Below, one piece after another: positions 24,866 to 55,441 of a stretch of DNA of 64,000 nt; position 1 is the stretch's first letter, and each line of letters starts with the position of its first letter. Under the pieces are notes generated by a model. The model did not search any database, was not told where the DNA came from, and was given only the letters and a program-made list of their open reading frames with translations. The DNA lies in assembly GCA_963718565.1 (NCBI GenBank), contig OY970364.1:736001-800000 (forward strand). Direction: 5' to 3'. The DNA comes from an uncultured Verrucomicrobiae bacterium (GTDB lineage: Bacteria; Chlamydiota; Chlamydiia; Chlamydiales; Rhabdochlamydiaceae). The translations under genes were made by a program, and so were the position numbers.

Positions 24866-27151
24866 ATGTTCGAGCTTTCCGTCGCTTTAAAGTATCTCAT
24901 TCCGCGCAGAAGACAGCTTTCCGTCTCTTTAATCGCTCTTCTTTCCGTGGTTGTGATCTCGCTTGTTGTTTGGCTGGTTCTGGTCTTCCTTTCTGTCACC
25001 GAAGGGATAGAGCGCGGCTGGCTGCAGAAATTGACAACTTTAAATGCTCCTTTACGGATCACTCCGACACATCACTATTATTCTTCTTATTACTATCAGA
25101 TTGATTCCGTCAGCAACCGTTCTGATTATTCTTTAAAAAATATCGCAGAGAAAGCGCGCACAGAGAGTGCAGACCCCTACAATTCCTTAGAAGATGGAGA
25201 GTTGCCAGTTCGATTTCCACAGCCTGACCTTTCCAGAGAGGGGGCGCTAAGCGATCCCGTGAAAGGGCTATTTCAGATACTGTCAGGCATGAAAAAATCC
25301 CATTCCGATCTCGTTTTTCAAGATTTTGAGCTGAGTGGAGCTCTGCTGCGCCTGCAGCTTTTACGACCTGGCAATGGGATGCCAGGCACAGAAACTCAAG
25401 GATATCTTACCCAAGTCTCCTATCTGGCCTCTCTTCCCGATCAGTGCCCTAGGCTTTCCTCTCTGCTTCTTCCTCCAAGAGAAAAAGATCTGAATCATTT
25501 GCTTTATCTCGCTTCGCACTCTACGGAGCTATCGCGTCAAGATTCCCCAGCATTCACTCTTAAAACTAGCAGAGAGACCGCACAAAACCGTATTCATGCC
25601 CTTCTTCAGCATGTCACCATCAAACAGCTTAAGCCCTCTTATTCGTTCTGGCAGGTTCCTTCTTCCTTTTTACCCTTAACCCAAGTTTTTGAAGGAATCG
25701 TTCACGACGGTCATGGAAGCATCAGCCGCATCGATCTGCCTTTAGAAAAAGGAAAGGGCAGACAGACATCTGGCAACCCTGTAAAGGTCTGGAAAAACAG
25801 CTCCCACTTCATCGTGGAGGATGAAAAAGGCAAACAGCAAGTTCTCTCGTTAAATACCCCCCTTTTAGTCGACGGCCCGATTCTTTTTCATGTGGAAGGC
25901 GTTTCGAAAACAATCCCCCTTCTATTTAAAGTCCACACTTCTCTTCAGGGCATTTCTTTTAAAGGAGATCTCGGAATAGAGGGGATGGAAATTGTCCAAG
26001 CAGATTTTTTCTCGCAACAATTATACCGCGCGCAGGAAGGTTTTGTGAATTTGGACTCAGCGAGGCAAAGCACAATCGAAGCTTGCGCTCCGAATGACGA
26101 AGCCATAGTGAAAACTATGGCTGCGGAGACACGAGAAGGTCTAGTAGACCTTCGCAGTACAGAGCAGGTGAGCGAAGCGAACGGGGAGGATCGATTGGGC
26201 AAAGCCGCAGCCAGTCCAAATTCACAAAACCTGACGGAGCGCGGTATAGGTCCGGCAGCTCCTTGGATCGGCCCACAAAAACTCCTTCCTATCAACGAAG
26301 AAAATGAAACAGGTGTTCTGCTCGCTAAAAGCTTTTTAGACCATGGAGTGATGATGGGTGATCGAGGCTACCTTTCCTATTCGAGCACGACATCCAGCGC
26401 AGTCCAAGAACATCGCCTACCGGTCTTTGTCTCTGGATTTTACGATCCCGGTATTCTCTCTGTAGGGAATAAATGCATCCTTGTTCCTCCTTTTGTCACG
26501 AGCACGATCAATGCCTCAAGCACATCCTTCAATCTCGATAAAACACAGTCCAATGGCATTCTGGTCTGGTTTGATAGCCTCCAGGAAGCGGGTGAGATTA
26601 AACATCAGATCTTGGCAGCTTTGAAAAGCCAAGGTCTCGACAAATACTGGAAAGTCACGACCTTTCGAGAATATGAATTTGCTAAAGATCTTCTAGAGCA
26701 GTTCCAAAGCGATAAGTATCTCTTTGCCTTGATCGGCGTCATCATCCTGATCGTCGCCTGTTGCAATATCATCTCTTTGCTCGTCCTGCTCGTCAATGAT
26801 AAAAAACGCGAAATCGGCATTTTGCAGACAATGGGGGCAAGCAATGTCAGCATCGCCGTCATTTTCGGGTCCTGCGGCATGGCCATGGGGATCTTAAGCA
26901 GCATCATTGGGGCTGTTGCTGCAGTATTCACTCTTCATCATATCGACATCGTCGTTCAATTCCTGAGCTTTATTCAAGGCCACGAAGCTTTCAATACAAT
27001 GTTTTTTGGAAAGTCGCTTCCCGGTGCTTTAAGCCGCAATGCATTGACTTTCATTTTAGTGACCACTCCCCTTCTTTCTCTTTTAGCAGGACTTGTTCCC
27101 GCAATTAAAGCTTGCCGCCTCCGCCCCTCCGCGATATTGAGGTCCGAGTGA
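24866..27151 (+). CDS. LolC/E (FtsX-like) ABC permease with in-frame palindromic insertion
   Basis: N-terminal ALKYLIPRR plus TM; C-terminal DKKREIGILQTMGAS and RLRPSAILRSE; lies upstream of lolD. Confidence 0.88.
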   Translation: MFELSVALKYLIPRRRQLSVSLIALLSVVVISLVVWLVLVFLSVTEGIERGWLQKLTTLNAPLRITPTHHYYSSYYYQIDSVSNRSDYSLKNIAEKARTESADPYNSLEDGELPVRFPQPDLSREGALSDPVKGLFQILSGMKKSHSDLVFQDFELSGALLRLQLLRPGNGMPGTETQGYLTQVSYLASLPDQCPRLSSLLLPPREKDLNHLLYLASHSTELSRQDSPAFTLKTSRETAQNRIHALLQHVTIKQLKPSYSFWQVPSSFLPLTQVFEGIVHDGHGSISRIDLPLEKGKGRQTSGNPVKVWKNSSHFIVEDEKGKQQVLSLNTPLLVDGPILFHVEGVSKTIPLLFKVHTSLQGISFKGDLGIEGMEIVQADFFSQQLYRAQEGFVNLDSARQSTIEACAPNDEAIVKTMAAETREGLVDLRSTEQVSEANGEDRLGKAAASPNSQNLTERGIGPAAPWIGPQKLLPINEENETGVLLAKSFLDHGVMMGDRGYLSYSSTTSSAVQEHRLPVFVSGFYDPGILSVGNKCILVPPFVTSTINASSTSFNLDKTQSNGILVWFDSLQEAGEIKHQILAALKSQGLDKYWKVTTFREYEFAKDLLEQFQSDKYLFALIGVIILIVACCNIISLLVLLVNDKKREIGILQTMGASNVSIAVIFGSCGMAMGILSSIIGAVAAVFTLHHIDIVVQFLSFIQGHEAFNTMFFGKSLPGALSRNALTFILVTTPLLSLLAGLVPAIKACRLRPSAILRSE
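26024..26246. mobile_element. Palindromic element inserted in frame (+75 aa) in lolC/E
   Basis: Ends taccgcgc...gcgcggta with TA duplication; 223+2=225 nt; inner arms ggttttgtgaatttggact / agtccaaattcacaaaacc. Confidence 0.9.
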
Positions 27152-27816
27152 ATAGAATTCTAAAAGCAACCCAGATCGCTAAAAAGTTTCTCACTCCTTC
27201 TCCTGTCGAAGTGCTGAGAGGAATTGATCTGGAGATCTACCCTGGAGAATCGCTCGCTATTGTTGGCAAATCCGGAGAGGGCAAAAGCACACTCTTGCAC
27301 ATCTTGGGAACGTTAGAAAAACCCTCAGGAGGCACTCTTGAAATTTGTGGACAAAACACAGCAGAGACCTCTCTTGCGAATCTGCGCAACCGGCATATCG
27401 GTTTTATTTTTCAAAGCTATAATCTGCTCGACGATGACTCTGTTCTCGATAATGTGCTCATGCCAGCCAAAATCGCACGCAAGCCCACTCATAAAAATTC
27501 TCCAGCGTATCTGCGTGCTTTAAACCTGCTCGACATTGTCGGACTGAAAGACCGTGCCCATTTTTTTGCAAAGCTCCTTTCGGGAGGAGAAAAGCAACGC
27601 GCCGCGATCGCAAGGGCACTTTGCAATGATCCCGACCTGATTCTCGCAGATGAACCCTCGGGCAATCTCGACCATACGCATTCTCAGGAAGTTCACTCCC
27701 TTCTCATTGGCCTCGCTAAAGATCTTAATAAAAGTCTCATTGTCGTGACTCACGATAAGGAGTTTTCTTCCCTCTGCGGTAAAACTTTGCTTTTGAAAGA
27801 TGGGCACCTTTTCTGA
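27112..27816 (+). CDS. lolD: Lipoprotein-releasing ABC transporter ATPase
   Basis: GKSGEGKS, GFIFQSYNLL, LSGGEKQR and ILADEPSGNLD motifs. Probable GTG start at 27148. Confidence 0.88.
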   Translation: MPPPPLRDIEVRVNRILKATQIAKKFLTPSPVEVLRGIDLEIYPGESLAIVGKSGEGKSTLLHILGTLEKPSGGTLEICGQNTAETSLANLRNRHIGFIFQSYNLLDDDSVLDNVLMPAKIARKPTHKNSPAYLRALNLLDIVGLKDRAHFFAKLLSGGEKQRAAIARALCNDPDLILADEPSGNLDHTHSQEVHSLLIGLAKDLNKSLIVVTHDKEFSSLCGKTLLLKDGHLF

Positions 27817-54233: not shown

Positions 54234-55441
54234 ACCCCCTCATCGAAGTGAAAAATTTATGCAAAGAGTTCGATGTACAAGGAGGGAATTGCAAAACTCC
54301 TCGCCGCATAAAATCGCGCTTTTGGCACCTGTCGCCTTGGCGGCGGCTGCCTTCGGCCCCGGTTCGCTCCTTCGCTCACCTGCTTTGCACTGCGAAGGTT
54401 CCCCGGACCTTCTCGTGTCTTCGCAGCCACTTATCCAAGTATGCTTTCGCCGCCGCCAACCGAACCCGCTGTGCGAGTTCTGGCAACAGGCGCCAAAATC
54501 ATCGATTTTCTGCTGGAGAGGAGTTTTGCAATTCCCTCCAAGGAAAAAAGCTGCTTGCTGTCCGCAATGTTTCTTTTGCCATCGGCCAGGGAGAGACATT
54601 GGGGCTAGTTGGCGAATCGGGTTGTGGTAAATCAACGCTGGGGCGCTGCCTGCTTCGTCTTGAACAAGTGACTTCTGGAGAGGTCCTTTATCAGCAAAGA
54701 AATCTCCTCTCCATGGGCCGCAGAGAATTATTTTCTTTTAGGCGCAACGCACAGATCATCTTCCAAGACCCCTATTCTTCTCTCAATCCTCGGATGACAG
54801 CGGGCGATATTATCGCCGAACCCGTGCGCATCCATCGCTTGATCGCTAAAGCCGACATCAAAAAATATGTCGCCTCGCTTCTCGAAATGGTAGGCTTAAG
54901 CAAAACAGCTTTTGGACGCTTTCCCCATGAATTTTCAGGGGGACAACGACAACGGATCGGAATTGCCCGAGCCTTAGCACTAAAGCCTCATTTCCTTATC
55001 TGCGACGAACCCATTTCGGCACTTGATGTGTCCATTCAAGCCCAGATCGTTAATCTGCTTAAAGCTCTCCAAAAAGAGCTGAGTTTGACTTATCTATTTA
55101 TCGCGCATGATTTGGCTATGGTCAAATATATCTCTGATCGCGTCGCTGTCATGTATCTAGGAAGCATTGTCGAAATCGCCCCTTCCGAAGAACTTTATCG
55201 CCATCCTCAACACCCCTATACTCAAGCTCTGCTCTCCGCAATCCCTCTGCCCGATCCTTTGCTAGAACGCACACGGAACCGGATCCCGCTTTCTGGAGAA
55301 GTCCCCAGTTTGATGAATCCGTTAAGAGGCTGCCCTTTTGCCAGCCGATGTCCTCATGCGATGCCCAAATGTTTAGAAGTGCACCCCGAACTCAAAGAAT
55401 CTACAGCCGGCCATCTCGTTGCCTGCCATCTTATTGAATAG
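54230..55441 (+). CDS. oppF: Oligopeptide ABC ATPase with an 87-aa in-frame insertion
   Basis: [16 protein letters not shown] and CPFASRC motifs; foreign segment between duplicated QG residues. Confidence 0.9.
54282..54538. mobile_element. GAGGGAATTGC palindromic element inserted in frame in oppF
   Basis: 21-bp perfect TIRs gagggaattgcaaaactcctc / gaggagttttgcaattccctc; 4-bp TSD caag; 257+4=261 nt. Confidence 0.92.

Follow-up and report, generated by a model that had tools for sequence, protein, structure and literature searches.

The stretch of DNA considered here (the window, 64,000 nt, G000:C1:736001-800000) belongs to the genome of an uncultured member of the Rhabdochlamydiaceae, G000, which is represented by a single contig of 2,284,058 bp. 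Two genes in the window contain palindromic insertions of the kind known as MITEs (miniature transposable elements with inverted repeats), and the two insertions, whose ends are unrelated, carry the same short structured module, here called the core. The first host gene (24866-27151, plus strand) encodes an FtsX-type (LolC/E-like) permease of 761 aa with an FtsX domain at residues 622-752, and the second (54230-55441, plus strand) encodes an OppF/DppF-type ABC ATPase of 403 aa with ABC_tran (residues 112-262) and oligo_HPY domains (all Pfam). The permease gene holds an element termed A-long (26024-26246, 223 nt, plus strand), which has TACCGCGC ends, terminal arms of 58 nt at 78% in an inverted-repeat search, and TA at 26022-26023 and 26247-26248. 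The oppF-type gene holds B-long (54282-54538, 257 nt, minus strand), with ends GAGGGAATTGC...GCAATTCCCTC, inverted arms of 25 nt at 96%, and a duplication of CAAG at 54278-54281 and 54539-54542. The cores lie at 26118-26185 (plus strand) and 54344-54432 (minus strand), and they account for the only two matches in the window to R1, a covariance model of the core (26115-26197, 84 bits; 54344-54432, 80.7 bits).

In the permease gene the insertion adds a net 225 nt (75 codons) at about residues 386-461, ahead of the FtsX domain; in the oppF-type gene it adds a net 261 nt (87 codons) near the 5' end, at about residues 18-104, before ABC_tran. Permease residues 386-464 are unmatched in all 18 further genomes from the genus, and 14 of these have both flanking blocks within one open frame of 662-728 aa. 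Orthologs of OppF are present in 17 of the 18; none of their matches starts before residue 102, except in one ortholog containing internal stops, where the start is at 73, the complete ones are open frames of about 312-372 aa, and the inserted residues have no counterpart. Judged by these comparisons, both window copies are lineage-specific in-frame insertions. They agree with the initial annotation of the window, which had placed both carriers in frame within genes and in opposite orientations: the core is sense in the permease gene and antisense in the oppF-type gene.

The segment 26118-26177 and the reverse complement of 54370-54429 are identical at 52 of 60 positions, the figure given in that annotation, and a repeat search reports them as an inverted pair of 60 nt with 87% complementarity. 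Five of the eight differences (core positions 9, 25, 26, 28, 29, 30, 42 and 45, by hand count) fall in or beside the loop of the GAAGGT/ACCTTC hairpin, again as claimed. Similarity between the window pair runs beyond position 60 with an indel (...GAGCGAAG--CGAAC-GGGG vs ...GAGCGAAGGAGCGAACCGGGG), so that their shared unit measures ~70-85 nt; the 60-mer forms the most conserved stretch of a repeat unit of ~75-85 nt that folds on itself into three hairpins. In the consensus of 19 cores (MAFFT alignment A1), the motif GGCTGCGGAnAC is followed by hairpin H1, nGnRRAGCAGG, hairpin H2, GG and hairpin H3. H1 is variable (6-15 bp), and its stem sequence is swapped wholesale between types, as in GAAGGTCC/GGACCTTC, TTTGAAAATGTCC/GGATATTTTCAAA and CTTCGCAAATGTCC/GGACATTTGCGAAG. 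The top of H1 (YCC, RGT, GGR) tends to be retained, and 89 distinct sequences occur among 105 folded segments, next to motifs that stay constant. H2 has the form GGTGA-RC-loop-GY-GAACC, with tandem G.A/A.G and an exchange of G-C for A-U. H3 is a small hairpin, CCC-GAA-GGG or GCC-GAA-GGC, which is often present and is absent in types A and E. The sense core in the permease gene, delimited by R1, A1 and pair counts, accordingly consists of the 5' motif GGCTGCGGAGAC, H1 at 26135-26153 (GAAGGTCT-AGT-AGACCTTC), AGCAGG and H2 at 26167-26182 (GGTGAGCGAAGCGAAC), with no H3. In the core antisense to oppF, delimited by R1 and A1, H3 reads GCC-GAA-GGC and H1 is weakened to 6 bp with a CCGGGGA loop.

Copies in the genome were catalogued by blastn-short (35 copies), then by nhmmer, which recovered diverged cores in other shells, and then by R1, which was built from A1, an alignment of cores from G000 itself. 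The R1 scan of G000 gave 50 matches at E <= 1, of which 46 are strong (E <= 3e-9). With 46 strong copies in the genome a chance origin is excluded, and the core is not the two-copy accident that the initial annotation had allowed for, as it recurs in many related genomes as well. Manual sorting assigned the strong cores to seven types of surrounding element, or shell: eight A, 26 B, six D, three E, and one each of F, G and H. Every core copy in G000 sits inside a shell. Of the B cores, nine are of subtype B1; the other 17, subtype B2, carry two extra nucleotides after H1. D shells end in TATACCGAAATGAATTCAAG and hold two core modules in tandem, and E shells end in TATACTGCGyCCAG.

The A and B shells have the size and abundance of MITEs (43-420 nt, no transposase gene, many copies), and both exist with and without the core. 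Paired A elements (n=19) fall into three short (89-90 nt), nine medium (166-167 nt) and seven long (223-226 nt) forms; by hand count, 17 have TA at the left flank and 18 at the right one. The B family has 302 termini and 80 paired elements in G000, 53 of which show an exact 4-bp duplication, and its members form a size series between GGGAATTGC ends of ~43, 52, 67, 107, 130, 178 and 253 nt. Core-less shells, namely the short and medium A forms and the B elements of 177-179 nt, are abundant; the latter number 26, compared with 19 paired B elements of 253-255 nt, and show 93-98% identity. Core-less forms have multiplied, which means that the core is not needed for movement of the shell. In B the core stands in place of the short tip AGGAGAG and in A in place of ACTGAGGAA, both of them rich in purines. 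That the core might be a third MITE nested in the others was rejected, as its junctions have neither inverted repeats nor a duplication and it replaces the tip rather than adding to it; derivation of the short tips by simple deletion of the core was rejected as well, three of nine bases being different in A. One B element is a recombinant in which the B left arm and core are joined to a right end of the other B subfamily, and other repeats are nested inside five of the 80 B elements; both show ways in which exchange can take place in G000.

The ends of the shells bear out the proposal that unrelated termini reflect different transposases. Type B has a 4-bp duplication and a partner insertion sequence (IS) of 1742 bp (G000:1624275-1626010) with B-type ends and an open reading frame (ORF) containing DDE_Tnp_1 and DDE_Tnp_1_assoc domains, which is read as ISAs1-like. 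Type A has TA flanks and TAC ends, as in IS630. About 15 near-identical 1.12-kb copies of an IS630-family element with a TA duplication, a TAC start and intact 360-aa frames (e.g., C1:46837-47259) suggest recent IS activity in G000. No IS with inverted repeats matching those of A was found in this genome, the IS630-family copies sharing only the TA duplication and the TAC start. A search for a parent IS of the TA-type shells gave only adjacent MITE pairs and an unrelated 1.9-kb segment, and these candidates were rejected. The segment (G000:C1:432165-434076) has perfect inverted repeats of ~120 nt with TA flanks and ends unique to the site, and encloses a 221-aa open frame resembling a membrane protein, with no transposase.

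The complete A and B elements form long hairpins whose tip is occupied by the core (z = -10.6 and -12.1, respectively). In A1, 81.6% of cells pair, compared with 29-44% when the partners are slid; seven pairs change on both sides, and the covariation score was reached by 0 of 500 shuffles. A larger alignment of 99 cores from many genomes (90 distinct), aligned to R1 and thus fitted to a model structure that favours pairing, gives 85.2% paired cells vs 33-49% slid, both-sided change in 19 of 22 pairs, and 268 double-change cells vs 88 in shuffles. The core stems covary around constant unpaired motifs, a pattern that templated correction could mimic without selection. The outcome that would have told against a conserved module, namely no covariation and no conservation beyond the rest of the elements, is not what is seen, since the stems covary and conservation of the core outlasts the shells. 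With Rfam 15 at gathering thresholds the window yields tRNA only and no family for the core, and nine core loci searched at E <= 10 returned only sub-threshold microRNA-hairpin and small-RNA noise, off the core or unrelated to it. With no Rfam family near threshold, a known RNA family was rejected as the identity of the core.

The range of the core among relatives was determined with R1 in 61 genomes including G000 (18 of the same genus, 18 from other genera of the family, and 24 from other families of the order). Matches occur in 16 of the 61, counting G000: in 11 of the 18 other genomes of the genus, in four of the 18 other genera (G029 with three, G030 with 36-40, G031 with 16-17 and G036 with five), and in none of the 24 other families, each represented by one genome. 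Whole elements used as BLAST queries also gave matches in genera G067, G069 and G079, confined to the core part of the query, and the core is thus present in at least seven other genera of the family. When species-representative genomes were scanned for an exact pattern, at least 94 stretches matched. Among the loci listed, 70 of 80 have an R1 match at E <= 1e-4; their records are labelled Rhabdochlamydia, Rhabdochlamydiaceae, Chlamydiae/Chlamydiales, 'Parachlamydiales', metagenome-assembled genomes labelled Verrucomicrobiae, or carry no taxon. By these labels the family carrying the core is the Rhabdochlamydiaceae. The remaining ten listed loci, nine from unrelated phyla plus L091, lack an R1 match and were set aside as chance. 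The core pattern has no match in viral contigs and, by blastn, none in plasmids.

Core and shells differ in their ranges. G028 has B arms that lack the core; G021, G022, G024, G063 and G077 have A arms alone; and G029, G030, G067 and G069 have the core with neither kind of arm. A second species, G001, has B with the core (81% identity over positions 5-251) and A with the core (92% over 2-223), so neither chimera is a fresh accident.

Copies without a shell are found in G030, a genome of another genus, where the unit GGCTGCGG...GCGAACCGG(C) of ~73-75 nt often has unrelated flanks. Among 17 cores sampled there, five have flanks on both sides unlike those of any other sampled copy, three share only an 18-mer tandem unit or a core fragment, and six sit in one composite shell. 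The G030 copies are mostly intergenic and often lie 2-40 nt from the 3' end of a gene; six neighbouring ORFs were scanned, which gave an M48 peptidase, an ABC ATPase, ribosomal protein S14, and three without a family. The 18-mer, GGCTGCGAATAGCGAACC, is repeated up to five times after H2 and looks, by its sequence, like a hybrid of the core 5' motif and H2. Five tandem copies stand directly after the core at L111/L141 (G030:C75, about 18650-18750), and shorter arrays are present at L066 and L077. The suggestion of an 'independently mobile or exchangeable' module is thereby answered in part: exchange is borne out by the several shells, while independent mobility has no counterpart in G000, solo copies being seen only in another genus.

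The term 'coding MITEs', used in the initial annotation, suits the two inserts in the window and, genome-wide, a minority of the elements. Of the 99 A and B elements, 90 are not spanned by a long ORF and one breaks an ORF, which leaves eight with in-frame read-through when at least 50 open codons are required on both sides; all eight read-through elements belong to length classes in which the net insertion is a multiple of three. Two of six frames are open in A-long, three of six in B1 and none of six in D. Since every one of the six frames is interrupted by stops in the D shell, the idea that the core is constrained as coding sequence was rejected. No orientation bias was detected: cores of G000 lie 23 on the plus and 23 on the minus strand, those within genes, for which ORFs served as a proxy, are five sense vs eight antisense, those between tandem genes are 11 sense vs eight antisense, and those of G030, relative to the 3' end of the adjacent gene, are about six sense and nine antisense (hand reading). 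Seven of the nine B1 elements (253 nt; G000 positions 487117, 590497, 790230, 1182892, 2050830, 2058198 and 1019171) are close to the start of a long open frame, inside its first 20-155 nt; gene starts could be preferred as targets, or the pattern could be an artefact that arises when ORFs are extended through the open element. The core is antisense in all seven, which is not significant because two of the three open B1 frames are antisense.

The reading to which we incline, if only slightly, is that the core is the basic unit of a family-wide mosaic repeat system, a passenger at the tips of fold-back transposons, whose fold is kept through recognition by a protein as a single strand. The unit occurs in three settings: solo beside ordinary genes; with short tandem arrays behind it that derive from its 3' part; and at the tips of long fold-back MITEs, the only setting seen in G000. 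The shells would be ordinary DNA transposons that are not autonomous and depend on enzymes acting in trans, in the case of B an ISAs1-like DDE transposase that makes a 4-bp duplication; A, C, D and E have the TA duplication and the TAC ends that typify IS630 elements. The core would be dispensable for shell transposition, and may have entered shells, or been swapped between them, by nested insertion or by template-switch recombination at the hairpin tip. Constant unpaired motifs, a constant loop region and covarying stems suggest a single-strand fold with protein recognition; supposing that the unit folds in vivo and has a function at all, the protein that recognises it may also be the agent that spreads the solo copies. 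In its more general form, as an exchangeable, conserved and structured module carried by several MITE shells, this idea was put forward in the initial annotation and is borne out by the seven shell types in G000, the covarying stems and the separate ranges of core and shells.

Several findings weigh against such a system. Independent mobility rests on flank comparison in one other genus, for 17 of its 36-40 copies, and no copy in G000 lies outside a shell. Between G000 and G001 the core of B copies is 80% identical overall and ~89% over the first 60 nt (hand count), and the arms are 73-77% identical, which is a modest advantage for the core. Counted as unique events, internal G.T pairs exceed A.C mismatches by nine to three, a difference that is not significant and does not establish folding of one particular strand. 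The fitting of the large alignment to the model, mentioned above, is a further point against the reading. At L032 the conserved 5' motif has been overwritten by the perfect complement of the 3' side, a signature of hairpin-templated correction, which is able to yield 'compensatory' changes without selection. The search for an enzyme gave no support either: of the five core-carrying genomes searched, G003 alone has PF01797 (Y1/RAYT), which G000, G012, G030 and G031 lack, and PF12784 (PD-(D/E)XK transposase) is absent from G000 and every core-rich genome. PF12784 was found in three genomes of the genus, of which only G009 has a core match, and a single one. RAYT/Y1 and PD-(D/E)XK transposases were therefore rejected as movers of the core, because their presence does not follow it.

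A different explanation is that the core is a cis-acting RNA element kept by the host, which folds in transcripts like REP, ERIC or Correia sequences and acts as a 3'-end stabiliser, an RNase processing site or a terminator. Stems that covary around constant loop motifs would be expected of it, most copies are intergenic, many of those in G030 lie just 3' of genes, and published MITEs behave in this way in the portions of two accounts used here (PMC10969869; PMC3733652). Against it, the core favours no orientation in either G000 or G030, no T tract follows the hairpins and the solo copies have no common upstream promoter. We take this explanation to be unlikely. The core may instead have no function and be the ancestral tip of a TA-type fold-back MITE superfamily (A, C, F, G and H), from which B, D and E gained it by rare recombination. 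The apparent covariation would then come from hairpin-templated correction, of which L032, with its templated perfection of a palindrome, gives an instance, and the conservation from young age and horizontal spread. The arm motif GATCGATTTGGCAAAG, which adjoins the core in A, G, H and F and is present without it in C, is in keeping with such an ancestry, as are the chimeric and nested elements and the excess of core-less over core-bearing forms. It is difficult to reconcile with the constancy of unpaired GGCTGCGGAnAC and AGCAGG, of the tandem G.A of H2 and of the loop with its closing pairs in at least eight genera in which the arms are fully replaced, and with solo copies that have no arm at all. 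The B element with core in the second species, at 81% identity, also shows that this chimera is not a recent accident. Overall, a functionless core appears distinctly unlikely.

Alternatively, the shells could require the core as an internal DNA site, either to transpose or to regulate transposition; a transposase, for instance, or a nucleoid protein might bind there, much as IHF has its site in Correia elements. Its motifs are constant, non-palindromic and central, and it is common to otherwise different shells; two unrelated types of ends would, however, need the same cofactor site, the 26 core-less B elements of 177-179 nt have clearly multiplied, and solo cores exist without any ends. We regard a role of this kind as very improbable. 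Going further than the passenger reading, one may see the core as a self-contained mobile structured nucleic-acid unit of a novel kind, REP-like but larger and with three hairpins, which is spread by a non-RAYT enzyme or an RNA-level process, preferentially invades the tips of hairpin transposons, and rides at least two unrelated transposase systems family-wide; this we consider doubtful. If it is true that solo copies move without RAYT, a new mechanism of mobilisation would be indicated.

Several other repeats and genes in the window deserve mention. A family C element at 56880-57051 (plus strand; TACGGCGCGCG ends, TA flanks) is the related copy at 56882 described earlier as lacking the core, and it indeed has A-like ends and no R1 match; family C has 19 near-full copies in G000. 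The element lies between two paralogous eukaryote-like Ser/Thr protein kinase genes (55431-58465; 436 and 448 aa, the first confirmed by Pfam), whose products have S/P-rich N-termini and which include 21-nt tandem repeats at 58086-58190. Also without a core are a B-family mini form at 30624-30679, a 52-nt palindrome between B ends; the right arm of an A-type element at 28169-28231 (plus strand), 98% identical to 26186-26248; and a short element with D-type ends (TATACCGAAAcGAATTCAAGATTTGG) at 7462-7610, the D shell elsewhere in G000 having a diverged core. A 225-nt direct repeat (7062-7286 and 27862-28086, 92% identity, 20.8 kb apart) has one copy just 3' of a lolD-like gene, where it adjoins the A right arm. 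Two small palindromic families (GTAAATAAAAGTGTTGAGGCTAGGCATT... and TGGCAAAAGTTGAAGACCATTT...), found at 37937-37997, 60770-60836 and 63893-64000, are nested inside B elements elsewhere in G000, and a further one at 47226-47394 has 76-nt arms with 83% complementarity and a related arm 31 kb away at 16213-16276. The oppD-type ABC ATPase gene 5' of oppF (53246-54233) is split into overlapping ORFs of 89 aa, with the start of ABC_tran, and 267 aa, with the remainder and oligo_HPY, probably by a frameshift. Assembly of four soil DNA runs gave fragmented contigs of low depth with one joint from 26127 to 26186 (58 letters skipped, one between), which probably stems from core-less A copies elsewhere and is uninformative on this locus.

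Small palindromic repeats are known in many bacteria; for the core module in chlamydiae no description was found. The portions of the literature consulted, among them PMC11602168, PMC9723776, PMC6490308 and PMC9769881, contain no description of such palindromic elements in chlamydiae, and two Rhabdochlamydia genome papers mention transposases, with no MITE or palindromic repeat found in the parts at hand. The present case separates two layers that are usually fused, the ends used by a transposase and an internal structured module, and the module outlasts and outranges any single shell. Together with its covariance model, it offers a candidate motif for a structure that binds protein or is catalytic, and a marker for repeat-driven genome change in Rhabdochlamydiaceae. 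The window adds two natural cases of insertions, of 75 and 87 residues, that are apparently tolerated in an FtsX-type permease and an ABC ATPase.

Among the repeats with which the core can be compared, Correia elements have a TA duplication, and the pneumococcal BOX repeat is composed of boxA, boxB and boxC. Correia and ERIC elements, as far as described in the portion of the source consulted, are fold-back MITEs with size classes set by an internal segment and strong RNA hairpins, and are often intergenic, all of which applies here; their internal segment, in contrast, is family-specific, and no structured core shared between families is described in that portion (PMC10969869). The Rickettsia palindromic elements (RPEs) are small palindromic repeats of an obligate intracellular bacterium that lie in frame in conserved genes and leave the frame open, according to the same source, which is what the permease and oppF inserts do (PMC10969869). 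Here, however, only eight of 99 elements are read through in frame, there is no conserved peptide, and the D shell is closed in all six frames, so that the core-carrying elements have neither the large in-frame share nor the common peptide of RPEs. They differ also in having clear terminal inverted repeats and target duplications and in that the conserved part is a structured nucleotide module found across shells, the comparison being one of properties rather than of sequence. REP, REPIN and BIME repeats of proteobacteria are likewise short and structured, mostly extragenic, often just 3' of genes and single or in mosaics, and in both systems the stems vary around a constant sequence tag, to judge from the portion of PMC3733652 used here. 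The core, by contrast, has 75-85 nt and three hairpins instead of a single 20-40-nt palindrome, shows no consistent GTAG/CGTC tag, sits within inverted-repeat transposons, and occurs without Y1/RAYT in four of the five core-rich genomes searched; it thus falls outside the REP/RAYT type. The pneumococcal BOX, RUP and SPRITE repeats share with the present elements a modular build and insertion into one another in clusters, again following the portion of the source consulted (PMC10969869). The modules of BOX belong to one family, whereas the core is shared by families with different ends and duplications and is conserved across genera; with the core in seven shell types, tandem modules in D, and solo copies and 18-mer arrays in G030, the elements described here have the make-up of a mosaic repeat.

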